Part shown: one piece after another, positions 3,204 to 45,368 of the stretch | How positions within the stretch are numbered: the first letter of the stretch is position 1 | How the letters are laid out: each line of letters starts with the position of its first letter | Source of the DNA: Cyanidioschyzon merolae | Lineage: Eukaryota | NCBI GenBank assembly: GCA_000091205.1 | Contig: AP006492.2 | Length of the DNA: 64,000 nucleotides | Reading direction: 5' to 3' (one strand) | Notes under the pieces: generated by a model | What the model saw: only the letters and a program-made list of their open reading frames with translations | The model's database searches: none | Told to the model about the DNA's origin: nothing | Position numbers and translations under genes: made by a program

Positions 3204-5726
3204 CTAGTAGGAGACATCCACGAGGCCGATGTGCCAGTAACCGTCGCGACTGAGGCGCCAGTTCGGAAACCCGCCACCACTTCCCCCGGGAGCACGATCC
3301 AGTATCCAGCCACATTCCATGCGCAAAGCGCCGAGCACACGCAACCCTAGTCCGACACTGATAACGCCGGACGCTGTGCTAGACCGCTGAATGGAGCCGG
3401 CGCTAGCTGGGGCATCAACGCCCGAGCTGGTGCTCTCAGCTGAGGCCGAATCCACAACGGTGCCGAGGCGGTGTCCGTGAGCGCCTCGACGGAACAACTT
3501 TGGAAAACGCACGAGATGCGAAGGTGGCTGAATCTCGGATCCCCAGTCCGTGAACGCCACAAACACGAGGCGCTTGTCGAGCGGGTATCGAAACTCTGCG
3601 CAGGTTCTCGCAAACGAGCCTACCTGTCCGAGTGATCCCTCACGCATCCCGCGAACGGTGGCTAATCCTCCGAAGGGATAACGCTCGGACTCGGGCAACG
3701 ATGCACTCGAAACACGTGCTTCAGCCAACAAAGCAACGCAGGCGCGGGCAGGCTGCTCTTCGTCTTGTTCTTGATTCTGGTGTGATGTTTCGGGTTGCTC
3801 GGTTTGTTTCCGACGACGACGCCGCAGGAGACCGCGAATAGGTGGTATTTTCTTGTACACACTGCCGGTGAAGCCAAAACGCGAATATTCTGGATTACTC
3901 GTTGTCACTGGAACCGCGTAGGCCGCATGCAGTGCAAGACGGTAGCCAGCTTGCGGATGGAGCGGATCCGATCGGGTATCACGGATAGCGCTGCTGTTCA
4001 GAACCAGGTGCGTGAAAGAGCGCTCTCGTGCGGTGGACGCTTCAGTCGTCGATTCATCGCGATTCCGTCTCGCTGACGCACCGTCTGCGGAAGCAGGAAG
4101 CGATGAGGACGCTGTCTGACCCGGATTCATTCCCGATGGAAACATTCGAACTTGCTCGCAGAGTACCCCTGTCTGGATATTCCATAGCTGCAGGGTCCGC
4201 TCCATGACGCTTCGCCAGGCAGCTGGTCGCAGCCAGGTTCGCGACGAGCGCCGAGCCTCATCTGTGGGTGCCGACCACAGCTGGGGCGCCATCAACGTAA
4301 CCTCTACCCCGCGACGACTTCCTACCGCCGTACTTCGTGATTCGAAGAGACGCACCTGGTAGCCGCCGGCCTTGGAACCTAGACGTGGATTCTGTAAGAC
4401 GATATGGGCTGCGTCATCGGATCGATCAGGCTTGGATCGGATATCTGCTTGAAAGCGAATCCCTCGGCCAGCGACATTTGCATCCTCCAAGGTTAGGTCT
4501 CCATAGAGCTTACCGCGGGAAAGCGTTATGCCGGGTTCGAAACGATGGAAAGGTCGTTCTCGCACGCGCAAGGTCAGTTCAACGTCACCTATTTCCGCAC
4601 AGCGTTCTGCTTGTGCGACTTGGCCTTCTGCTGCTGGCGAGTCGTGTGGCGTCACGGCGTCAATGACACGTACATCCGCTGTCACGGACTCGAACAGGCC
4701 CAACTGCTGCAGCCGCTGAAAGTGTTGTTCTGTCCAGCGGAACGGGACTTTGCGTGGACATGCCTTTTGCGCCGAACGCGACTTGCGCGAATGTCTCTGG
4801 TGGTCTGGCATTTCCTTCTCAACACCGAGTCCGTCATAGCCCAGGGCCCGGGCAATGACGCTGGCATGCGTCCGACCTGAGCACGGCTCCTGGTTGGCAT
4901 CCACGTATTCCACGAGGACTCTAGCGACGAGCGGCTCGTACGCCTCGAGGACCAGGATACCATCCTTGATAGGCGTATCGGGTGCTCTTCGTACAAGCGC
5001 AAGCGGGTATCCATGCTCGCCATAAAAAGCGTTCAAACTGTCGATTGAACGGCGAATGGCGGTGTAGTCAATGGACGCGTCAGCATTCTGATTAGCCTGA
5101 AGGATTCGATTCACCGCCTGCTCTAGGCGGTCACGTGGTAGCAGCAGACGATCAACGGGTCCACGGAGCACAACCTGGCGAAGTGGGCCTTTCGTCTGAT
5201 CGTTCGGATGTTCCGCGTAGATTTCGGCGGCTTCTTCTTCTGTAGCTGCAGTTGGGACGCTAAGCGCGAGAGCAGTCGGAGCACGCAGCCACACCTGTAC
5301 GGTGTGCCAGCATAGCGTCAGCCACAGCAGAAAACTTCCCCGATTGGGCAAGTCAGGAAAGCCACCAGCCACACCGTCGACGTAGGAGTTGCCTCCTCGG
5401 CCGCCACCGCCACGGAGAGTGCGGTCACCGATCGAACCGCACCAGGACCGTTTCACTCCAGGCTTGGTGGTGTTTCGGTGTCGCTTTCGACGAGAGCGTG
5501 CCATCGAGTCGAGCATTTGACTTTGCCACGAGCAGGTCAAAGGTTCTCCACGCTTCGATAACCACGTGGTGCTGCGGTGCCAGCGCTGCCCGGTACGATC
5601 CGCAGGAAACTGTTTCCTTGGTGCGTTCCGTCTTCGCTCGCGTGATGCAATAGATCGCGTACAGATTTTGAGAGCGTGAGCCCCTACACGAAGCGGATCA
5701 CCCGCCAGGAACCCCAGAACACACAT
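3204..5726 (-). CDS. Omp85-family outer-membrane beta-barrel protein (Toc75/OEP80-like or Sam50-like)
   Basis: The C-terminal part has the Omp85 barrel signature RYPFGGLATVRGMREGSLGQ...FRYPLDKRLVFVAFTDWGS and a terminal SVGLGLRV...DGYWHIGLVDVSY. Upstream is a POTRA-like segment (LRQVVLRGP...LEQAVNRIL...IDSLNAFYGEHGYPLALV...ILVLEAYEPLVARVLVEYVDANQ). The N-terminal extension contains a poly-Gly run (RTLRGGGGRGGNSYVDGVAGG) reminiscent of Toc75 targeting sequences. The ORF-track start at 5747 is GTG; the first ATG is at 5726. The true start may lie further downstream. Confidence 0.7.
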   Translation of the reverse strand: MCVLGFLAGDPLRVGAHALKICTRSIASRERRRNAPRKQFPADRTGQRWHRSTTWLSKRGEPLTCSWQSQMLDSMARSRRKRHRNTTKPGVKRSWCGSIGDRTLRGGGGRGGNSYVDGVAGGFPDLPNRGSFLLWLTLCWHTVQVWLRAPTALALSVPTAATEEEAAEIYAEHPNDQTKGPLRQVVLRGPVDRLLLPRDRLEQAVNRILQANQNADASIDYTAIRRSIDSLNAFYGEHGYPLALVRRAPDTPIKDGILVLEAYEPLVARVLVEYVDANQEPCSGRTHASVIARALGYDGLGVEKEMPDHQRHSRKSRSAQKACPRKVPFRWTEQHFQRLQQLGLFESVTADVRVIDAVTPHDSPAAEGQVAQAERCAEIGDVELTLRVRERPFHRFEPGITLSRGKLYGDLTLEDANVAGRGIRFQADIRSKPDRSDDAAHIVLQNPRLGSKAGGYQVRLFESRSTAVGSRRGVEVTLMAPQLWSAPTDEARRSSRTWLRPAAWRSVMERTLQLWNIQTGVLCEQVRMFPSGMNPGQTASSSLPASADGASARRNRDESTTEASTARERSFTHLVLNSSAIRDTRSDPLHPQAGYRLALHAAYAVPVTTSNPEYSRFGFTGSVYKKIPPIRGLLRRRRRKQTEQPETSHQNQEQDEEQPARACVALLAEARVSSASLPESERYPFGGLATVRGMREGSLGQVGSFARTCAEFRYPLDKRLVFVAFTDWGSEIQPPSHLVRFPKLFRRGAHGHRLGTVVDSASAESTSSGVDAPASAGSIQRSSTASGVISVGLGLRVLGALRMECGWILDRAPGGSGGGFPNWRLSRDGYWHIGLVDVSY

Positions 5727-6070
5727 AGCCCTACGACCCAGTCGCACGAGAACAACACATATCCTCAGCGATACAATGCTTCAGGGCGCGTGCGGCGCCT
5801 TGGCTGGCACAGCTGCTCGGTGTACTTGTCCTCTGAGACTGGTGAGACGTGCTGTTCCTCGACGTCGTTGGCGGTACGGGTCTCATGTTTGGGCTTTTCG
5901 TATAGCTTAGGGGAATTTCATGCGTATTGAGGGATTGAATAGTCCATTTTGCATAGAAGAGTGATCGGAAATCATCCCAAAAATGTCCAGGGTCATGTAG
6001 AGTAGCGGATCGTCGTGATCGTTCACCAAGGGTGCAGGAGAAACTTTCAAGCCATTTCTATACGGTGCTT

Positions 6071-9640: not shown

Positions 9641-10593
9641 CGCAGTGTTTTCAGCACTTTGCCAATAAGCTGTTGAGTGACAGAGACACACCTAGTTGCT
9701 ACTATCGTAGCTTTTGCTTTCTCTAAAGTGATCAATGGATCGTTTTCTACCATTGCCCGCAAACAAGCTTTGAGAATATCGGTTTCTGGCGCGGAGCGCC
9801 TCTACTCGTTTCTTTCAGTCTTCCTCAATCATCTGAGCATTGTACCATGTCTGGCCTTACTGAGGAATGCAGTCCTCGTTGCGCTGTTCAGTAAAGTATA
9901 TATATCCTCCAGGCAATTCGTCATCTATCTACACGGCACATTGCGTATTTTCTTCGATCTGCAGTTACTCTCCGCATCGGGGGTAAACCGAAAATCGAGA
10001 TGAAACGCAATCAGGGCGTGCATCGGCAGTCCATGGAAGTATTCCTGCAGTGCTCATCATAGAGTGCTGTCAGGAACCGTTTCCAGATCGCCTGGACAAC
10101 TTCAAAGCATCCCATAACTTGAAATGGTCATGCAGGTAGACGCTCTTGTGGTATCGTGCTTCCTTTCAAGTACGATCCCAGCGTAAGGGTCCCCAGACAC
10201 GAGCGCGACATGAAACGCGATCAATTCTGCCCCAAGTTTTGAAACCTAAAACCCGTGCATACCGAGTCCATGCCTCGTGTGTTGTGAAACACGAGTCCCT
10301 GAATGCTGAGCGTCGTTTCTGGACCCGCTGGCATGCCGGCTGGCGAACGACGCAACAAGGTACTCGACGGCGTCTTGGAGCCAGTGAAAAGGACACAGCG
10401 ACTTGCACGCGAAACCGGCATCGATTGAGGCCAGATACAGCTATCTTGGGGGTGGCAGGGTGTCGGTCCTCGTCACGCAACCGGCGTCGAGAGTCCAACA
10501 ATAAACGCTTTAGCGGAGACTGAAACTGTGCCCTCGGGGAGTTGTTTGTACCCAATCGGTTGGAACTCGAAAAACCAGGCGGTTGGTTTGATC

Positions 10594-11511
10594 ATGCAGC
10601 GCGTGCGCCTGCTCTGGCCGCTCGTTCGGCGAGTTCATCAACGAGAGGCCCAGCTCGCCTCGTTACGAGCTCTGCACCGAATGCAGCCTGAGGCCTTACG
10701 TCAGGTGCGGTCCCTAACCTCGCTGGGCCAGCTTGGACACCAAAAGATGAAAGGTTCCGCTCGCAGGGACTCGATAGCGGGACTCTGGAAAGGTCCACTC
10801 CGGAGTGTGCTGCAGCGGCGGACGCTTTTCATTCAAACCGCTGCTACCCCGAACCCAAACTCTGTAAAGTTTTTACCTGGATCCGTTGTGATAGAAAACG
10901 AGGGGACCTATGACTTTCCCACGCCGCAAGCAGCGAGAGCCTCACCCCTTGCGGATAAACTCTTCCAAATTGACGGCGTCGTGGGGGTCATGTTTGGACC
11001 GGACTTTATCACGGTCACGAAGCGTGAGGACATTGAATGGAACGTTCTCAGACCCGAGATCTTCTCGGTCATTATGGATTTCTACATGTCTGGACAGCCG
11101 CTGTTCATGGATGCCTCAACGGGAAGCGCGGACGCGCCGGGTCTCAACGAGGATACACGGATCCTTGACGCGGATCCTGAACATGTAGCCATGATCAAAG
11201 AACTCATCGAGACGAGAATTCGACCTGCAGTCGCTGAAGATGGTGGTAGCGTTTTGTACCGCGGCTTTGAGGAAGCAACGGGTACCGTCCTCCTCGAGCT
11301 ACAGGGAGCATGCTCGAGCTGTGCCAGCAGCAGCGTGACACTGAAAAATGGAGTCGAAAACATGCTTCGGCACTACGTGCCTGAAGTGAAAGCCGTACGA
11401 GAAGTGAAGAATGCGGAACGCGAAATGATGGAGGCCGAAAGCAATCGAATGCTCCACGAACTGGAGCGTCGGTTTGCCCAGCAGCATGATGCGACGCCCG
11501 CCAAACGCTGA
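10594..11511 (+). CDS. NFU1: NFU1-type iron-sulfur cluster scaffold protein (Nfu N-domain plus NifU C-terminal domain), mitochondrial-type
   Basis: Nfu_N-like region (VKFLPGSVVIENEGTYDFPTPQAA...IDGVVGVMFGPDFITVTKRE...WNVLRPEIFSVIMDFYMSGQPLF) followed by the NifU-C motif IRPAVAEDGGSVLYRGFEEATGTVLLELQGACSSCASSSVTLKNGVENMLRHYVPEV. The track start at 10528 is GTG; the first ATG is at 10594 (MQRVRLLWPLVRRV..., a presequence-like R-rich N-terminus). Confidence 0.85.
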   Translation: MQRVRLLWPLVRRVHQREAQLASLRALHRMQPEALRQVRSLTSLGQLGHQKMKGSARRDSIAGLWKGPLRSVLQRRTLFIQTAATPNPNSVKFLPGSVVIENEGTYDFPTPQAARASPLADKLFQIDGVVGVMFGPDFITVTKREDIEWNVLRPEIFSVIMDFYMSGQPLFMDASTGSADAPGLNEDTRILDADPEHVAMIKELIETRIRPAVAEDGGSVLYRGFEEATGTVLLELQGACSSCASSSVTLKNGVENMLRHYVPEVKAVREVKNAEREMMEAESNRMLHELERRFAQQHDATPAKR

Positions 11512-25761: not shown

Positions 25762-27228
25762 TTATCGGTCAACTTCACCAAACACAAGATCCAGCGTACC
25801 AACCAGAGTCACAACGTCCGCAATCATATGGCCTCGAGCAAGCATATTCAGACCACTCAGATGCGCAAACCCGGGAGCGCGAATATGGACGCGATACGGC
25901 CGATTCGTTCCGTCGGAAATCATGTAGATGCCCTCCTCTCCTTTGGGTGCCTCTACCGCGACGTAGGTCTCACCAGCAGGAACAACGAAACCCTCTGAAT
26001 ACAGCTTGAAATGGTGGATAAGGGATTCCATGGAGGACTTCATGTCGTGTCGACTCGGTGGCGATACCTTGCGATCATCGACTCGAATCTCGCCTGAGGG
26101 CATCTGATTCAAACATTGCTGTATGATGTCCAATGACTGGCGCATTTCCTCGACACGTACGAGGTATCGGTCATACGAGTCTCCGTACACACCGACGGGG
26201 ATCTTGAAATCCACGTAGGCGTATGCGTCGTATGGTTGGACTTTGCGAATATCCCACGGAACGCCGCTCGCCCGCAACATCGGACCGGTAAAGCCCCAGT
26301 TCAGTGCGTCTTCGGCGCTCAGCACGCCGATACCAACGAGACGTTGTTTCCAGATTCGATTGTTGGTGAGCATCTCCTCGATCTCGTCTACACGCGAAGC
26401 GAACTGTCGGCACCAGGCGTAGATATCATCGCAGAGGCCCAGCGGAAGATCCTGGTGCACACCACCGGGTCTGAAGTAGTTGGCGTGCATGCGAGCGCCA
26501 CTGACACGCTCGAAAAACTCGAAGGTTTTCTCTCGCTCTTCGAATGCCCAGAGGAAGGGCGTCAGCGCGCCTACATCCATCGCATGGGTCGTGACAGCGA
26601 GCAGATGGTTCGAAATGCGCGTGATTTCCGCGAACATCGTTCGGATGTACTTAGCCCGCAGCGGCACCTCGATTTTGAGCAGTTTCTCCACGGCTAGGCA
26701 GAAAACTTGTTCATTACACAACATGGAGCAGTAGTCTAGTCGATCCATGTACGGCAGCGCTTGCAGATACGTTTTATATTCCATCAGCTTTTCCGTGCCG
26801 CGGTGGAGCAAACCGACGTGCGGGTCCGTCGACTCGACTACTTCGCCGTCGAGCTGGAGTACTAAACGTAACACACCGTGAGCAGCGGGGTGCTGCGGCC
26901 CAAAGTTGAGCGTGAAGTTGCGGATCTCTTTTGCGTTCTCCAGGTTTGCACGCATGCGCTCCTTTTCGTGCGGCTCGAGCTGCTGAACATCCACTTCCCC
27001 AGAGAAAGCGTTGTAGCTCTCAAGATCAACATAGTCCTTAGGTTGGAGCGCTCCGGGCTCAGGTCGCGTTCGTGTCGCATCAACGCAGAGTGCTCGCACG
27101 CCGGTACCCAGCAACCGACGCACCAGAAAACCGTTGTGAGGCGCAGGGTCGGCGTAGCGCCGCCCCAACTGGTGTAGGAGTAGGTTTCTGGCGAGCCCCA
27201 GACCCGAGCAAAAGCCTCGACACCACAT
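25762..27228 (-). CDS. NDUFS2: NADH:ubiquinone oxidoreductase 49-kDa subunit (NDUFS2 / Nad7 / NuoD), nuclear-encoded with N-terminal presequence
   Basis: [24 protein letters not shown]...[50 protein letters not shown]...[20 protein letters not shown]...[15 protein letters not shown]. The start codon at 27228 is ATG. An approximately 100-aa N-terminal extension ([24 protein letters not shown]...) is consistent with mitochondrial targeting. Confidence 0.9.
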
Positions 27229-37858: not shown

Positions 37859-40315
37859 TTATCGGTCAAGGAAGCGTGCAACCTCTTTCAGTGAACGGAA
37901 TTTGCGTCCGTCCGGGGATACATAGACACGATCGATGCGTCCGGCTAGGGATCCACCTTTGCGGATTTGCTCCTCGAGTCGCCAGCCCGGTGGGAGCGTC
38001 AGCGTCAGCGACGGTTTGCGTCCACCCCGATGACGACGGTCCGTCGCTCCAGCACCAACAACGAGGCCGTTCTGACCTGCCACGATCTCCGTCTGGTCAA
38101 GCATTCGGCGGGTTTCCTCATTCACCCTATGGCCAGTGCGGTGGCGTTTGCGCTTACGGGCAAGTGCACGATCACTGTCTTTTTTGATCACTGGCAGTGA
38201 CGATCGCGGAAATCGATGAGCGGGTTTCGAAAGTCTCGCAGCTGCACTTGCTGGCGATGTCAGCGGTGAGGTCGACGACGAACGCATCGCCGACGCGTTC
38301 CTGTTCCGAAGGGCCAAAGCCTCTTCCCGGGACGACCTGCGGGGGCGGCGGAGACCCTGCTCCGCATCTCGAGCTGGTTCTTCTGCTTCATCGCTCCATG
38401 CTTCCTCGGAGTCGTCTCCGTCGCTTAGCTCGTGGGTGTACCACGCCCGATGCGGATACATTTGCGCAGCCGGTGCGGCTATTGTCGACCGCGGGAGCGC
38501 ACGCGGTAGCGATTCGGAGACAGCGTGAGGAGCCCTTGCCGTGCTGCGCGACGCGTTCAGCGTCGCAAGACGCTGAGCGGCTTCGAGTGCTCTAAAGTTC
38601 GAGTCAGCTGCATTTGAATCCTCCGCTCTCGACGATTCGGCGGGAGGTGCGGCCCCGAGTGCGCGCCTCGTCACAGCGGGGGGTGCTTTGCTTTTGACCT
38701 GCCAGTGGTCCGCACCACGCCAGATGGCGTACGGACGAAGCTGATCCAGGTGGAACCATTCGTCACTGCCGTCCGCGAAAGCGACGAGAAAGCCCTTGCG
38801 TGCTAAAAAATTTCGAACTTGGCCAACAGTCCAACAGCAGCCGTGGCCACTGGTGGACGCAGTGCGCGACGGCATGTCCGTCGAGCTTGTGCTCTTTCCT
38901 TGGATTTGATCGACCGCTGCCTGTTCTGCAGTGCTTGTCGAAGCGGATGGTGTCGCTGATGTTCCCGCACGTCCATGAGACAGCGACAAAAGCGCCTCTA
39001 CAGCTTCGCCAACACCGGGACGCCATTCTGGCATTGGTGGCGGGGGATACGGCCTCAACCGTGCGCCCAGCACAACCCGGTGCGGGCCCTCGGGCATTGC
39101 TCCCGTTCCCCCAGCTGCAGCACCTTGAACATTTGCAGGGCATGCGCCAGCTGTTTCCGAGTTAGCACAAGCATCTGCCCGGATGCGGAGCACCTCGTCT
39201 GCACTGAGGAATGCAATTTCATAGGCGGTCTTCGTCAACGGTGAAACATCATCGTATTCGCACACGCGATTGATACCATCATCCTGCGCGATTTCCACCG
39301 CTGAGAGAAGCGACTCGGTGCTTGATGGCCATGAAACGTCCGCCGAGATAATCCGCGCCGGACACCAGGCCCGGGCTGCTCCCGCTGAATCTAACAGCTC
39401 CACAACCTCGCCCGGCTTGTAGACTCGCTGGCACTGAAGCCGCGGCGTGGGCGGTATGCCCATTGCCGTCGACCGATGTGGAGACTGTAGAATCGCTGGC
39501 GGCTCTGAGCGAACCGGAACACATCTCCAGTTCGAATCTGGAATCGCCGCTGGTTCCTTTTGCCCGTTGTCCGCAAAAGACCCTGTATTCGACCAGTCTT
39601 GCCCCAGGGCACCGTAAGCGGGCGAGATTCGCAGCACCGAATCCGGTCGAGGCGATATCAACGGCGACGATTGCGACTGGCCCCCGGCGCCCGGTTTCGC
39701 AGCTCGACCACGTTCGTGAGGCCGCTTTGGACGTCTACGCGGCGCCGCATCCACAGTGGAATCTTGTTGCGAAGCGGAGCTTTGCATCGGCCCTAAATCC
39801 TGGGCAATCGATACAGGATTGTACATCCTTGCCTCAAGCTGGCTATCGCCTGATGGTGCCTGAGCATTCCAGGCACTCGTTGAGCGAGGCAAACTTGCGT
39901 TGGACGAGACTGCGTCGGTGGTCCCCGATGGCCCAGCGGCACGCAGCCCACGAGACTCTGAGGCCGTGCGCTTCCCCGGGGTCCGTGCGCGGCGATTCTT
40001 GAACCATAAGCGACAGGAGCGAACTGGAACGCCACTTGCCGAAGACAGCGCCTGCAACTCCGCTGTGCTCGGCATTGGATTCTGCTCGAAGACGGTTTTC
40101 AGCATCTGCATCTGCTCTGGCGTAAAGCGATGCCTCTTCATTCGTGACGCTTCTTCGGAAGATCGTTCGCTTTGAGTCGCTGCTCGGCCATCCGAGTGCG
40201 AGCCCTCAGTGCCACGAGCCAGAGCGTCCACTGCGTCCGCTGTTCGAAACTCGTGCTCAGCGGGTGCCCACGTCGGCAGCGGTGAATGCACCAAACTGTG
40301 ACCGGCAACGTCCAT
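37859..40315 (-). CDS. Multi-domain chromatin protein: homeodomain plus Tudor/Agenet-like barrel(s) plus C-terminal methyl-CpG-binding domain (MBD)
   Basis: N-terminal homeodomain RHRFTPEQMQMLKTVFEQNPMPSTAELQALSSASGVPVRSCRLWFKNRRART with the WFxNRR signature. Central YKPGEVVELLDSAGAARAWCPARIIS and VGQVRNFLARKGFLVAFADGSDEWFHLDQLRP resemble Tudor/Agenet-type barrels. C-terminal LPPGWRLEEQIRKGGSLAGRIDRVYVSPDGRKFRSLKEVARFL matches the MBD consensus (LPPGWKREEVIRKSGLSAGKSDVYYFSPSGKKFRSKPQLARYL). A basic GRKP stretch just before the MBD is AT-hook-like. Long S/A/P-rich linkers. The track start at 40342 is GTG; the first ATG is at 40315. Confidence 0.6.
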   Translation of the reverse strand: MDVAGHSLVHSPLPTWAPAEHEFRTADAVDALARGTEGSHSDGRAATQSERSSEEASRMKRHRFTPEQMQMLKTVFEQNPMPSTAELQALSSASGVPVRSCRLWFKNRRARTPGKRTASESRGLRAAGPSGTTDAVSSNASLPRSTSAWNAQAPSGDSQLEARMYNPVSIAQDLGPMQSSASQQDSTVDAAPRRRPKRPHERGRAAKPGAGGQSQSSPLISPRPDSVLRISPAYGALGQDWSNTGSFADNGQKEPAAIPDSNWRCVPVRSEPPAILQSPHRSTAMGIPPTPRLQCQRVYKPGEVVELLDSAGAARAWCPARIISADVSWPSSTESLLSAVEIAQDDGINRVCEYDDVSPLTKTAYEIAFLSADEVLRIRADACANSETAGACPANVQGAAAGGTGAMPEGPHRVVLGARLRPYPPPPMPEWRPGVGEAVEALLSLSHGRAGTSATPSASTSTAEQAAVDQIQGKSTSSTDMPSRTASTSGHGCCWTVGQVRNFLARKGFLVAFADGSDEWFHLDQLRPYAIWRGADHWQVKSKAPPAVTRRALGAAPPAESSRAEDSNAADSNFRALEAAQRLATLNASRSTARAPHAVSESLPRALPRSTIAAPAAQMYPHRAWYTHELSDGDDSEEAWSDEAEEPARDAEQGLRRPRRSSREEALALRNRNASAMRSSSTSPLTSPASAAARLSKPAHRFPRSSLPVIKKDSDRALARKRKRHRTGHRVNEETRRMLDQTEIVAGQNGLVVGAGATDRRHRGGRKPSLTLTLPPGWRLEEQIRKGGSLAGRIDRVYVSPDGRKFRSLKEVARFLDR

Positions 40316-40713
40316 TGGCCTCTCACAACAAAAGGGTAGCACGGGCTGTACGATAAAATGCCCACTGGCTAGTGTTCAGGGCGGCCAACGCAAGCGGCCC
40401 CGGTGCCGCTGGCTTCCGCAAAGCCAAGCGTTCTTCCGAACACACGCGCACCAGAAAGTGCCGTTCGCAAGCGTTCGTTGCTAACTTCCGTGACTTTTCT
40501 ACAGTCACTCAGTGATGGCAGGCTCGAAAAAGCCCACTGGAAAACTGCGGTTTCCGCGCGAGGCTGCACGCAACGGAGCTGAGCGTCGCAAGCAGTAGAG
40601 ACCGGCTACGTTGATTTGCAGCGTCTCGTGGCGATCGCCGAACACGCAGCGAATCTCGGGCTTTGCAGTTGGCTTGCGGAGGTTGGCGCGCTGCGCACAC
40701 GCCGAACGCCTGG

Positions 40714-40826: not shown

Positions 40827-43042
40827 GCGTCGGCACGCATCGGCAGGCTGGGTCGGATGCTGCTGTAAGGCATTGTATACACACGAGTCGTGATCTCCGT
40901 AGATGCGTACGGATGGTGATAATGGTAATGGTGATGATTCGCGGCGCTGGGCGGTCGTCGTGCGAATGAACCACTGCTGTCCTTGATGCTGTTAACGAAC
41001 GCGCACTCTGAGATCCGTGGTAAGACTGGACGACTCTTGAAGTTGAAGGAATTGCGGGTGGAAGGCCGATCGCCTGGGGCCCCAGACGCAACGTCGCTGC
41101 GCTGCTCTACATCCACGCCAGGCTAGAATGGGGAGCTTTTTCAAAGCAGCTTTGGTGTACAGTGCAAAGATTTCGATTATTCCGATAGTTATCAGAATCG
41201 ACTTTTCGGGATCTTTTTTCAATTGGTTTTCTTTCTGCTCCCCGTCTTTGAATACGCAGGTCTCTGCTATCAATCAAACACAATTATTGGCAGTGGCAGG
41301 GTATTGATGACAGCGTCATGGTCTAGATTTCGTTACTTGTCGCTGTTATGCTCAGACTTTTGATGTGCAGGTAAAAGTTGCGATGTGCGCTTCGTTCGCT
41401 ATGTTCATCTTGGTCGTAGACCGCCTTGGTGTGCGTTTCGCAGCGTGAAACTCAACTGCGTTCAGATAGTTGCATATGTGTGCGAGAACCCCTCCTATGA
41501 AGGTCACTATGTCATGCAAGAAAGCTTGCTTCATCGCTCGGCGCATGCCCCTCACGAGAATAGAAGGCCCGCTGTGATGCCCGGCTCCATTTTCGCGCTC
41601 GTTGCAGTACCTGACCGTGACCGGCTTCGGCTGAGCGATCCCTCGGCGAGTGCGGTGTCCGCTGCACGTGCAAGCGCATGCTGTTGGATTCAATGGGGGA
41701 TTTGTGGAGCGCCATGATGTTCTTGATCAGAAAGCACCAGCGGGATAATTCAGGATGGAAACCAAGTCGGGAAATTTCGATCCATTTACGCGTCCTTCTT
41801 CCAGAACGGTAACGAACTCTCCACCGGAGGCTATAGAGTCCGAGTAGAAAACCCTTTCCAAGCAAACGGAAGAGATAGCGAGCCTCTGGGAGCGTATCCT
41901 ATCAGGTTGTATGCTATGGGGGAATGCATTTTCGTCGATAGCTATTTAAAGAGGATGATTTATCTTTTCAAAGGCGCCGATTATATAGCGTGGCCAGTTG
42001 CGCGAGCGTTCCGCTTGAGCATGTGTAGAAGTTTTCAAGGGACGACGTCGAAGGCGTTTCGTCCCCAATCCAACGGTACGAGTTGCTGCGCCCAGAAGTT
42101 GCGTTGGAGCAGAAAAATACAACACTTAAAGAATGCGTGATTTGATTACTCCACACGTAAGGAACAGAGAAGCGTGGAGATTTTATTTATGAACCGGATA
42201 CTAATATCGGTTAGTTTACGGATCCTTGTTAAAGGGGGCGTCGCATATCACCTGGGTTCTCGAGGTGTCACGAATTTCAGCGACAGCGCGTCGAGCGAGC
42301 CACTCCGAAACAGCGCCAGAGAATCCAAAAACTACACACGAACCCGTAACATCTTATTACTGTACCTCGAGCGTCGAAGCACCACATCTGAGACCAGTGT
42401 CGGAAATAAATGCTAGGCCCAAACATGGGCACTACTCCCGTGCGCCATTTTCATCAGAGACGGATACAGTCGAGCGCGATCCAAGATGCCGCATCGGCTG
42501 CAAGTTGGCTGCGTTTGCCGGTGGAGCGTCAAGAACGTAAACATCAAGATATTCCTGGAACGCGCATGCGTCGCATACATCTCCGGGGAAACGGATGTCT
42601 TTCGAGTGCACCAGCACCAGGCAAGCTGAATATACCTTGGATCTTGGAGACTGGTGTGCTCAAAGTTGATAACTCCGTGCCACATGTGCTGTCATGCGCC
42701 ACGTGTGAGTCTGAGCTTTTCGTAGAGCATTTTATGCATACCGTCGGAGTGCTATGTCTATAGCATGTAGAGTGCTACTAAATCACGCTGTCGCAATCCA
42801 CTCACCAACAAGTAGTTTCGAGACATGTCTTACAATTCAGTTGCACTATGCCAAAGTTCTCACGTGCCAAAAACTCATAGCTAGCGACTGAGGTATTCTT
42901 GACAGACGGATCGACAGAGAGACCTAGTTTGCTATACGAGTGCGACTCACACCTTGAACCGTGTCTCGATCAAGGTTGGCACGGTTCGATGCAACTACCA
43001 ATCAAATGCACCGAATCATCATAGGGCGCGCGCGTGCAGCTG

Positions 43043-43280
43043 CGGCGATAGCCCGTGCAATAACAGGACGGCTCGCAGAAAAAGTACAGTTCTATACAAA
43101 TTGGCCATCGGCCGATGCCGGGCGGCGGCAGCCCGTGCAATTAATGGACGGCTCGCAGAAACTGCACACTTCTACACAAATTGGGTGTCGGCCAGTGCCG
43201 AGCCCTGCGGCCGTACCCTCGTGTGCGCCCAGACTGATGCCGAGATAGCGGCTGGTATCGCTGCTCGTGCCGGGCGGCTT
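43043..43280. repeat. Tandem repeat, about 80-bp unit x about 2.5, immediately upstream of the ABC-F gene
   Basis: gcccgtgcaataacaggacggctcgcagaaaaagtacagttctatacaaattggccatcggccgatgccgggcggc is followed by gcccgtgcaattaatggacggctcgcagaaactgcacacttctacacaaattgggtgtcggccagtgccgag, with an 80-bp period (gcccgtgcaa at 43051 and 43131). A partial third copy is gatagcggctggtatcgctgctcgtgccgggcggc. Confidence 0.75.
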
Positions 43281-43352
43281 TAGAACGCTGCCGATTCACG
43301 CCCGTTTAGGAAGCAGGAAACCACTTTACTGAGAAGTTTATCGACGTAGACC

Positions 43353-45368
43353 ATGTTCGTAGCAACCACGCCCTTGAAACTGCCGTTGGTTGGTTCCCAC
43401 GCTACGGTTGCAAGCAGGGGCCGGCGGTGTGCTTTCCTTGGCGACGCAGTGGTCAGCGTTGCTGCTGCGTCGCTCCGAGGCGAACGCTGTCGCGGACTAC
43501 CCATCGCCGGACGTTTGCACGTGCGCATGGGCTTGAATGCATCGAAACTTAAAAAACAGCAGCAACAACAGCAGGGCAAGAAGAAGAACAAAGTCTCAAC
43601 GAAACAAGAGGAGGCCTCCGATGCCCCAAGTCAGATTGACACGAACCGACGCGATTACATGTTCCAAATGCTTAGGGTCAGCAAAATCCTTCCTAATGGA
43701 AAACAAATTCTCAAAGACATTTCCCTCGCCTTCTTTCCGGGGGCTAAAATTGGTGTTGTAGGGCCCAACGGCGCCGGGAAGTCGACGTTGCTTCGTATCA
43801 TGGCCGGTGTGGATAAAGAGTTCGAAGGCGAGGCCCGTCCCATGCGTACCGCTTCCATCGGGTACCTGGCGCAGGAGCCTCAGCTCGATGATGGCGAGAC
43901 AGTTATGGATAATATCATGGCGGGCGTGAAAGAAATACGAGATAATTTGCACCGGTTGGAGACGCTGTCTCAGCGGCTAGCGGATCCCGCTTGCTCAGCA
44001 GCCGAGAAGCAGGAAATTGCCCAAGAGATCGACCAGGTTCAAGCCCAAATTGAAGCCGCTGATGGATACAACCTCGAGTCGATTTTGGAAAGGGCAATGG
44101 AGGCGCTTCGGGTTCCTGCTCCCGAGACGCCGGTTAAAATTCTTTCGGGCGGTGAGCGCCGACGGGTTGCACTCGTTCGTCTCTTGATTCGTCGCCCTGA
44201 TCTACTGCTCCTGGACGAACCAACAAATCACTTGGATGCAGAGTCCGTGTTGTGGCTCGAACAGTATTTGTCCAAGTATTACACGGGAACCGTTGTTGCA
44301 GTAACACATTCGCGCTCCTTCCTCGAAAACACCTGTGAATGGATCCTAGAGCTGGAAAACGGCCGCGGCATACCGCACCAAGGCAACTACTCCTCCTGGC
44401 TTGCCGCGAAACAGCTTCGTCTGGAGCAGGACAAAAAGGAGGCGGATGCGCGGCGACGACTCATTGACGCCGAGTTGGAGTGGATCCGAGCAACGCCCGC
44501 GGCTCGAATGACGAAGAACAAAGCGCGTATCGATCGCTTCGAGGAACTTTACCAAACGCAGCAAGAGACGGCGGAGAGTCGTTCGCAATCCCTTTCAATG
44601 AATCAGATTCGCATCCCCGTCGGGCCGTACCTAGGCGAGCAGGTCATCGAAGCCGAAGGTCTCTTCAAATGGTATGGAGATCGATGCCTTATCAGTGATG
44701 CGACGTTCTCGATCCCGCGCGGCTCAGTGGTCGGTATCATTGGTGGCAACGGTGCAGGCAAATCGACGCTCTTCCGCCTGATCACCGGACGGGAGCAGCC
44801 AAGCGCTGGCACCTTGCGCCTAGGCGAGACCGTCAAACTCATGTACGCTGATCAAGACCGAGAGACACTGGATCCCAACAAGACCGTATTTGAAGAGATC
44901 TGTGGCGACGCCCATGTCGATACAGTGACCCTGGGCAATCGCACATTGAATGCTCGGGCGTACTGCGCGTGGTTCAACTTCAGGGGCGCCGACCAACAGA
45001 AGAAAGTCGGCGTGCTGAGCGGTGGCGAGCGCAACCGCCTGAACTTGGCCAAAGCGATTTTGAACCGAGAACACGGCGGTGCAGGTAACGTGCTTCTGCT
45101 GGACGAGCCTGGCAACGACCTCGATACAGCCACGCTAGCGAATTTAGAGCAAGCAATTCTGGACTTTCCCGGTGTTGTTCTGGCGATCAGCCACGATCCG
45201 TGGTTTCTCAGCCGCGTCACCACCCACATTCTCGCGTTTGAAGGTGACTCGCAGGTGCGCTTCTTCGTGGGCGGTTTCGATGCCTATCAGGAGTACCGGC
45301 GGGCGCGCTTTGGTGATGAGTTTATCAATCCTACTCGTTTGAAATTCCGACCGCTACCCAAAATGTGA
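43353..45368 (+). CDS. ABC-F family ATPase of the bacterial EttA (YjjK) type, with an approximately 100-aa N-terminal organellar presequence
   Basis: From MFQMLRVSKILPNGKQILKDISLAFFPGAKIGVVGPNGAGKSTLLRIMAG onward the protein is collinear with E. coli EttA along its full length. It has two ABC cassettes with Walker A (GPNGAGKST / GGNGAGKST), signature LSGGERRRVALVRLL / LSGGERNRLNLAKAI, Walker B LLLDEPTNHLD / LLLDEPGNDLD, the EttA arm/linker (WLAAKQLRLEQDKKEADARRRLIDAELEWIRATPAARMTKNKARIDRFEEL) and the C-terminal FFVGGFDAYQEYRR. ATG at 43353. The extension MFVATTPLKLPLVGSHATVASRGRRCAFLGD... is hydroxylated/basic with no acidic residues, then a poly-Q/K linker. Confidence 0.9.
   Translation: MFVATTPLKLPLVGSHATVASRGRRCAFLGDAVVSVAAASLRGERCRGLPIAGRLHVRMGLNASKLKKQQQQQQGKKKNKVSTKQEEASDAPSQIDTNRRDYMFQMLRVSKILPNGKQILKDISLAFFPGAKIGVVGPNGAGKSTLLRIMAGVDKEFEGEARPMRTASIGYLAQEPQLDDGETVMDNIMAGVKEIRDNLHRLETLSQRLADPACSAAEKQEIAQEIDQVQAQIEAADGYNLESILERAMEALRVPAPETPVKILSGGERRRVALVRLLIRRPDLLLLDEPTNHLDAESVLWLEQYLSKYYTGTVVAVTHSRSFLENTCEWILELENGRGIPHQGNYSSWLAAKQLRLEQDKKEADARRRLIDAELEWIRATPAARMTKNKARIDRFEELYQTQQETAESRSQSLSMNQIRIPVGPYLGEQVIEAEGLFKWYGDRCLISDATFSIPRGSVVGIIGGNGAGKSTLFRLITGREQPSAGTLRLGETVKLMYADQDRETLDPNKTVFEEICGDAHVDTVTLGNRTLNARAYCAWFNFRGADQQKKVGVLSGGERNRLNLAKAILNREHGGAGNVLLLDEPGNDLDTATLANLEQAILDFPGVVLAISHDPWFLSRVTTHILAFEGDSQVRFFVGGFDAYQEYRRARFGDEFINPTRLKFRPLPKM

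Follow-up and report, generated by a model that had tools for sequence, protein, structure and literature searches.

A nuclear-encoded EttA of the red alga Cyanidioschyzon merolae with a candidate plastid transit peptide

The ABC-F proteins were surveyed across life by Murina et al. 2019 (J Mol Biol 431:3568; PMC6723617), who recorded three of them in Cyanidioschyzon merolae (algEttA, cpYdiF and ABCF6) and described the subfamily of the first as bacterial-like eukaryotic ABC-F, with the entry "chloroplast targeting peptides predicted" in their Table 1. This protein, named algEttA in their tables and "Cyanidioschyzon_merolae_strain_10D_XP_005534938.1_cpEttA" in their alignment, is the product of the gene analysed here, which occupies positions 43353-45368 (plus strand) of a 64,000-nucleotide stretch of contig AP006492.2 (assembly GCA_000091205.1; this whole stretch is hereafter termed the window). 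The accession is the same and there is no difference in kind; gene and concept have thus been catalogued at the bioinformatic level since 2019. The survey gave a TargetP score only, whereas an N-terminal Phe motif, an M-G-L-N-A boundary motif and a basic tail are described here; together with the truncated gene models in sister species and the lack of EttA in about 80 cyanobacterial genomes covered from the survey's Table S1, they are modest additions. The gene is best read as encoding a plastid-imported EttA that acts on plastid 70S ribosomes, an assignment that we infer from sequence and comparative evidence and regard as probable.

The EttA proteins of Escherichia coli (YjjK; 4FIN, 3J5S) and Mycobacterium tuberculosis (7MSC) share with the C. 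merolae protein a core identity of about 52-54%, the same domain order, the arm, the linker, both catalytic glutamates and the lack of a C-terminal extension. Unlike them, the algal protein is encoded in the nucleus and carries a 58-residue presequence followed by a 41-residue Lys/Gln-rich tail, substitutions adjacent to the H-loops and an insert at residues 572-576. Among organellar systems, the mEttA proteins (Acanthamoeba XP_004368150.1, oomycetes, Dictyostelium) likewise possess a eukaryotic EttA-like core, in several cases with a Lys-rich stretch before the first nucleotide-binding domain (NBD1), but form a separate clade, show 42-46% identity and have mitochondrial-looking leaders without a conserved Phe motif. 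The cpYdiF proteins (chloroplast ABC-Fs of Arabidopsis; C. merolae XP_005536291.1) are plastid-predicted, bacterial-like ABC-Fs as well; they belong to a different subfamily that has cyanobacterial members, whereas EttA is found in none of about 80 cyanobacterial genomes covered from Table S1. In Chlamydomonas, an EttA-homologous ABC-F was enriched on the chloroplast 50S subunit and four plastid ABC-Fs co-purified with chloroplast ribosomes (Westrich 2021, PMC7797057), and ABCF6 was localised to the pyrenoid (Lau 2023, PMC10473203). These proteins, which were found experimentally, resemble the C. merolae one in being nuclear-encoded and EttA-homologous; they belong to the green lineage with its Phe-independent import, and the likeness is taken here as one of homology. 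An ABC-F protein has furthermore been reported as essential for the Plasmodium apicoplast.

According to the list of open reading frames, the reading frame begins with ATG, is uninterrupted and intron-less and yields a product of 671 residues, exactly as given in the first-pass annotation, which had assigned it to a eukaryotic nucleus. An exact-sequence look-up identified the product as XP_005534938.1 / BAM80331.1 / UniProt M1URU7 of C. merolae 10D, a primary-plastid red alga, in accordance with the source that had been deduced from the letters alone. As an in-frame TAG is located two codons upstream of the ATG, M1 is the sole start able to yield the leader. In the databases, XP_005534938.1 bears the names "ATP-binding subunit of unknown ABC transporter", "sulfate-transporting ATPase" and "Probable ATP-dependent transporter ycf16", all of which are misleading or wrong for a soluble ribosome-binding ABC-F. 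The features of the gene and of its EttA core are as follows (window coordinates).

43347..43349, plus strand: in-frame TAG two codons 5' of the ATG (read from the sequence)
43353..45368, plus strand: complete single-exon coding sequence, 671 residues and stop, nuclear EttA-type ABC-F (open reading frame list, exact-sequence match, EttA equivalog with 783 bits)
43650..45356, plus strand: EttA core, residues 100-668, collinear with E. coli EttA (NF008775 and PDB sequence matches; top 11 Foldseek PDB matches all EttA)
43761..43787, plus strand: Walker A of NBD1, GPNGAGKST, residues 137-145 (invariant G137, N139, G140, G142, K143)
43929..44057, plus strand: arm, a two-helix insertion in NBD1, residues 193-235, corresponding to E. 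coli EttA 95-139 (AlphaFold helices 193-210 and 216-235; 33% identity)
44202..44219, plus strand: Walker B of NBD1 with the catalytic Glu289, corresponding to E. coli E188 (alignment; D288 and E289 invariant)
44388..44579, plus strand: inter-domain linker (P-site tRNA interaction motif, PtIM), residues 346-409 (PF12848; AlphaFold helices 346-380 and 382-409)
44742..44768, plus strand: Walker A of the second nucleotide-binding domain (NBD2), GGNGAGKST, residues 464-472 (invariant G464, N466, G467, G469, K470, T472)
45090..45107, plus strand: Walker B of NBD2 with the catalytic Glu585, corresponding to E. coli E470 (alignment)

The assignment to EttA is carried by profile, sequence and fold comparisons. 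The Pfam families PF00005 (ABC_tran; twice) and PF12848 (ABC_tran_Xtn, residues 332-408) were detected and no membrane-domain family was. The NCBIfam EttA equivalog NF008775 matched residues 100-668 (783 bits, with 599 as the cut-off) over nearly its whole length (positions 3-554 of 556); the competing models reached 372-378 bits (Uup) and approximately 240 bits (YbiT/YheS-type), and those of antibiotic-resistance ABC-Fs remained under half of the NF008775 score. The older TIGR03719 (ChvD) subfamily model scored 782.4 bits and thus narrowly below its cut-off of 806.75, a near miss that is consistent with lineage-specific substitutions and small inserts and does not contradict the equivalog model. 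The best match among PDB sequences was E. coli EttA (3j5s_D; residues 101-669 versus 9-560, E 3.6e-187, 627 bits, without large gaps), the EttA of M. tuberculosis being the other top match by sequence and by fold. The proposed collinearity of the mature part with E. coli EttA, including the arm and the linker, is borne out by this alignment and the equivalog score. The cytosolic ABC-Fs, which had been set aside in the first-pass annotation, scored far lower (human ABCF1 177 bits, yeast Arb1 154 bits, eEF3 151 bits); a cytosolic eukaryotic type (ABCF1/ABC50, Gcn20, Arb1, eEF3/New1) was therefore ruled out by 150-177 bits versus 627 for EttA, in agreement with the Foldseek ranking. The AlphaFold model, built on an alignment of red-algal and bacterial EttAs, was confident over residues 100-658 and contained two NBDs; in the Foldseek comparison with the PDB its 11 best matches were all EttA structures. 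Judged by sequence and predicted fold, XP_005534938.1 is a full-length EttA proper.

The alignment of the query with 29 bacterial EttAs and six red-algal orthologues revealed intact catalytic motifs: in addition to the residues listed above, Q174, Q501, the two SGGE signatures, H319 and H614 are invariant in the two sites. The linker aligns to residues 242-322 of the E. coli protein. Identity to E. coli amounts to 33% in the arm, 47% in the linker and 56-63% in the NBDs; since these values are close to those of other bacterial EttAs (34%, 56% and 60-78%, respectively), the ribosome-contacting modules have not decayed. The insert at residues 572-576 comprises five residues and is specific to the Cyanidiophyceae. 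Adjacent to H-loop 1 (window 44304-44318, residues 318-322), the near-invariant THDRY is replaced by THSRS, and next to H-loop 2 (window 45189-45200, residues 613-616) SHDR is replaced by SHDP, in each case in all six Cyanidiophyceae sequences; Timspurckia retains the bacterial residues next to both H-loops. Three over-long "EttA" proteins (P0020, P0022, P0023; 682-841 residues) with duplicated or chimeric segments, of which P0022 resembles E. coli EttA broken up by a piece of another ABC-F, are probably assembly or gene-calling artefacts.

Approximately 99 residues at the N-terminus are without an equivalent in bacteria: the corresponding stretch measures 0-6 residues in 24 bacterial EttAs, apart from a single outlier of 29. 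The leader had been described as a single stretch of roughly 100 residues, rich in Ser, Thr, Ala and Arg and lacking acidic residues; its length stands, whereas it proved to be bipartite (residues 1-58 and 59-99) and of a different composition: residues 1-58 comprise nine Lys or Arg, two Asp or Glu, 16% Ala and only 12% Ser and Thr, and the tail from 59 to 99 does hold acidic residues. The elements of the leader are the following.

43353..43361, plus strand: N-terminal M-F-V, a Phe motif typical of rhodophyte and glaucophyte plastid transit peptides (orthologue comparison, literature)
43353..43526, plus strand: putative presequence, residues 1-58, divergent, net basic, predicted disordered (composition; predicted local distance difference test (pLDDT) below 50; upstream frame open in all relatives checked)
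43527..43544, plus strand: boundary motif M59-G-L-N-A-S (M-[GA]-L-N-[AS] in all red-lineage orthologues covering the region)
43527..43649, plus strand: Lys/Gln(/Gly)-rich tail, residues 59-99, conserved, predicted disordered (Lys and Arg counts; pLDDT below 50 up to residue 91)

The Phe at position 2 had been noted in the first-pass annotation; it is present and, as part of a motif, recurs throughout the red lineage. For the orthologue count, a third homologue search with a florideophyte-type seed provided about 30 further red-lineage orthologues, including those of Gracilaria domingensis and a Porphyridium transcriptome, and the motif was counted in those 30 red-lineage orthologues in which the M-G-L-N-A motif is preceded by 20 residues or more. 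In 28 of the 30, a Phe lies no more than nine residues behind an in-frame leader Met, and 24 have a Phe among residues 2-10 when counted from the annotated start; by chance, a nine-residue stretch would be expected to contain a Phe with a probability of about 0.3, as estimated from the typical Phe frequency. The usual starts are MAFV, MAFI, MAFL and xAF[VIL], and all four Cyanidioschyzon/Cyanidiococcus-like sequences begin with MFV. The two exceptions are an evidently truncated model (P0294) and a sequence that has kept AFV without a Met just before it (P0322). Beyond this motif, the red-lineage leaders have almost nothing in common. That an N-terminal Phe typifies plastid import in red algae and glaucophytes, as stated in the first-pass annotation, agrees with the literature: the motif is a plastid-targeting determinant in both groups that sets plastid apart from mitochondrial precursors, and for C. 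merolae the transit-peptide Phe residues were termed "characteristic of Rhodophyta Tps", with a transit peptide lacking residues 2-13 being tested for receptor binding (Baek 2022). Its conservation across the orthologues makes the case much stronger than a lone Phe at position 2 would. A useful contrast within the window is offered by an NFU-type iron-sulfur scaffold protein (Nfu_N and NifU domains; 10528-11511, plus strand), the leader of which (MQRVRLLWPLVRR..., taken from its first Met onwards) is rich in Arg and contains no Phe. Residues 1-58 of the C. merolae EttA are, on their composition and the conserved motif, best read as a plastid transit peptide.

At the end of this segment, the residue two positions before the leader-end Met is Val, Leu or Ile in 20 of the 30 sequences, and the residue directly before it is Arg, Thr, Val or Cys. 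In C. merolae the boundary reads "HVR|M", of which Val and Arg match the enrichment at Cyanophora plastid processing sites (rich in Val, Ala and Arg); on this resemblance, the cleavage position may lie here. In all relatives checked, the frame upstream of the internal Met stays open while the sequence itself is unconserved. The 45 residues preceding NBD1 contain 10-13 Lys and Arg in six of seven red-algal sequences and five in L001; a profile search with the tail region alone returned two short fragments only and missed the query proteins themselves, so that it is uninformative on the spread of the tail, which was judged instead from the exhaustive representative search and the third homologue search. 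Several public gene models begin at the internal Met, namely those of Cyanidiococcus yangmingshanensis (P0017; L002:2836-3000, JANCYV010000002.1), Cyanidium caldarium (P0018) and the relative P0021, and likewise the EttA gene model L001:92-355 (MGLNAS/MALNAA type). Translation of the contigs upstream of these models gave open frames beginning with MFVTLAYT... and MHAMFVPAG..., which shows that the models are truncated and omit the transit peptide.

The invariance of Met59 in all red-lineage orthologues, though within a poorly conserved region, raises the question of a second start codon: translation from M1 would give the plastid precursor and translation from Met59 a presequence-free protein, with the Lys-rich tail at its front, for the cytosol or the mitochondrion, so that one EttA would serve two compartments. 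Such dual isoforms would be in line with the internal-Met gene models, with the presence of only three ABC-Fs and the lack of an mEttA in C. merolae, and with the statement that alternative initiation underlies dual plastid/mitochondrion targeting in red-plastid algae (Knopp 2020). However, the internal-Met models look like caller artefacts because the upstream frames are open and begin with MFV, and position -1 of a V/L/I-x-M|G processing site would suit the Met as well, a role that would account for its invariance with M1 as the only start. The tail, moreover, with its abundant Lys, Gln and Gly and its predicted disorder, does not resemble the amphipathic, Arg-rich presequence of a mitochondrial protein, and the similar Lys-rich N-terminus of Acanthamoeba mEttA obtained a TargetP mitochondrial score of just 0.13. 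Taken together, dual isoforms appear unlikely; the motif at Met59 is probably a processing site or the mature N-terminus, and a place for the Met at -1 or +1 relative to the cleavage point is favoured over an alternative start on these sequence grounds. N-myristoylation of a Met59-initiated isoform, which the combination of MGLNAS with a polybasic stretch might suggest by its myristoyl-switch look, was rejected: L001, P0320 and P0303 have Ala at position 2, and most florideophyte sequences carry Lys at position 6.

Under the preferred reading of a plastid-imported EttA, the 671-residue precursor would be made in the cytosol from M1, and the MFV motif together with the basic presequence of about 58 residues would steer it to the import apparatus of the red-algal plastid (Omp85-type channel, PTF receptors). 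After removal of the presequence at or beside the invariant M-G-L-N-A motif, a mature protein of about 613 residues would result, consisting of the disordered Lys/Gln-rich tail and the complete EttA. In the stroma, it may bind to the E site of plastid 70S ribosomes with the initiator tRNA in the P site, with the arm contacting the L1 stalk and the linker helices reaching the P-site tRNA; ATP binding and hydrolysis at the sites of Glu289 and Glu585 would then let the ribosomes enter or pass early elongation, whereby plastid translation would be coupled to the stromal ATP/ADP ratio. Plastid import, cleavage position, ribosome binding and throttle action are thus all steps that we infer.

Several points weigh against this reading. 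The published TargetP prediction is a near tie (chloroplast transit peptide (cTP) 0.44, mitochondrial targeting peptide (mTP) 0.43; location C, reliability class 5, the lowest; Murina et al. 2019). An early Phe is not exclusive to plastid precursors, given that the mitochondrial NDUFS2 encoded in the window (25762-27228, minus strand) starts with MWCRGF. The strictly conserved Met59 could be a second start codon, as discussed above, and in the literature searched no localisation or biochemical data on this protein or its red-algal orthologues were found, nor was a paper on red-algal EttA. Without a cyanobacterial EttA in the genomes covered from Table S1, plastid ribosomes would not have inherited this partner, and its fit is assumed from the general conservation of 70S ribosomes. 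Finally, the "throttle" model rests on E. coli work. A further possibility is that the protein is a plastid ribosome factor without any ATP/ADP "throttle", easing difficult early codons or taking part in 50S maturation. In E. coli, EttA also relieves pauses on acidic N-terminal sequences; this, the enrichment of the Chlamydomonas ABC-F with 50S particles, its gene identifier in the legend of a ribosome-biogenesis panel (Westrich 2021, PMC7797057) and the organelle biogenesis defect upon loss of the apicoplast ABC-F would agree with it. The sequence does not discriminate between these roles and all features for the classical E-site mechanism are present; we hold a role of this kind for possible, though not for the expected one.

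The near tie of the TargetP scores is also an argument for a mitochondrial presequence, in which case the protein would regulate mitochondrial ribosomes, a role proposed for amoebal and oomycete mEttA. Arg residues are frequent in the leader and acidic ones few, and with EttA being present in Alphaproteobacteria but not in the cyanobacteria covered from Table S1 a mitochondrial ancestry is conceivable. The conserved MFV/MAFV motif, in contrast, is a plastid determinant in red algae, and four of the five mTP-like leaders of mEttA-type proteins have no Phe in the first ten residues (P0152 has two). The bootstrapped neighbour-joining tree points the same way: the red-algal sequences form one clade (99% bootstrap) nested within bacterial EttA, distinct from and outside the clade (75% bootstrap) that unites the Acanthamoeba mEttA with the proteins carrying mTP-like leaders. 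The phylogenetic check that had been suggested thus separates the red-algal proteins from mEttA, and by score the protein does not group with cytosolic ABC-Fs. Furthermore, in complex-red-plastid relatives an AF motif comes after a signal peptide, which is a plastid route; one such EttA-like relative was met in the exhaustive representative search, in which the other eukaryotic EttA-like proteins were Acanthamoeba XP_004368150.1, several with mitochondrial-looking leaders and one of green-algal appearance. A mitochondrial destination is therefore regarded as very improbable and import into the plastid remains the preferred reading.

With regard to the origin of the gene, the backbone of the tree has a support of 1-13% only, so that no bacterial donor can be named, and the green-like and complex-plastid relatives are placed on long, unresolved branches. 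Bacterial relatives were also sought by a scan of genome contigs with query-specific patterns (57 loci, an arbitrary sample rich in Spirochaetes), which was used only for the named sequences. In about 80 cyanobacterial genomes covered from Table S1 of Murina et al. 2019 the ABC-Fs are limited to YdiF and Uup, with BAF3 added in some, and no cyanobacterium was among the named best matches of the homologue searches. As far as these genomes go, the plastid EttA was probably not inherited from the cyanobacterial ancestor of the plastid. The plant "ABCF5-type" chloroplast proteins, for comparison, presumably correspond to the cpYdiF subfamily, with ABCF5 being equated with the Arabidopsis cpYdiF entries. 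The Lys-rich stretch just before NBD1 is also present in several mEttA-type proteins and in the complex-plastid relative. One may tentatively consider a single early eukaryotic gain of a non-cyanobacterial EttA, with the Lys-rich tail common to the plastid and some mitochondrial versions, followed by retargeting to the plastid, a scenario to which we give rather limited credence; in a bolder variant, Met59 would be the second start codon giving a non-plastid isoform. If this origin were true, the plastid ribosomes of red and other algae would be controlled by an E-site factor with no precedent in the cyanobacteria from which they descend, and the conserved tail would be a eukaryote-specific addition adapting EttA to organellar ribosomes.

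The gene is embedded in a run of intron-less eukaryotic genes (G+C of the window about 0.49-0.61), both the run and the G+C being in keeping with C. merolae, among them those for Mo25, a dihydrouridine synthase, a class II aminoacyl-tRNA synthetase, COG4, ChaC and an actin-related protein. NDUFS2, the nuclear-encoded 49-kDa subunit of complex I that had been reported from the window, is present at the position given above. As to the reported Toc75-like Omp85 with poly-Gly, an Omp85-family protein is encoded at 3204-5747 (minus strand), whereas a long poly-Gly stretch is lacking and only an LRGGGG motif occurs; the protein ends with VDVSY and its first in-frame Met gives MCVLGF.... Both the VDVSY end and the LRGGGG motif have been reported for the C. 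merolae Omp85/Toc75 homologue (Wunder 2007). Upstream of the EttA gene, a protein with a homeodomain and a methyl-CpG-binding domain (MBD) is encoded at 37859-40342 (minus strand); the same gene lies upstream of EttA in Cyanidiococcus (L002:1-1359), hence the local gene order is conserved. In the intergenic region upstream of EttA, at a distance of 150-310 bp from the start codon, an 80-bp unit is present in two tandem copies (window 43042-43200; 81% match), for which a promoter element and a chance duplication are both possible.

The first-pass reading of a bacterial-type EttA serving the plastid is thus supported by sequence and comparative evidence, with localisation and mechanism being deduced from them. 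In practical terms, the true start codon, the too-short annotated starts in Cyanidiococcus and Cyanidium, a probable mature N-terminus and the wrong public names have been brought to light. C. merolae is transformable, almost intron-free and has only three ABC-F genes, and would therefore provide a clean test system. In plastids, gene expression is controlled chiefly at translation, and the stromal ATP/ADP ratio tracks light; in consequence, a nucleotide-sensing ABC-F of the E site would be an attractive candidate link between photosynthetic energy and the synthesis of plastid-encoded proteins.

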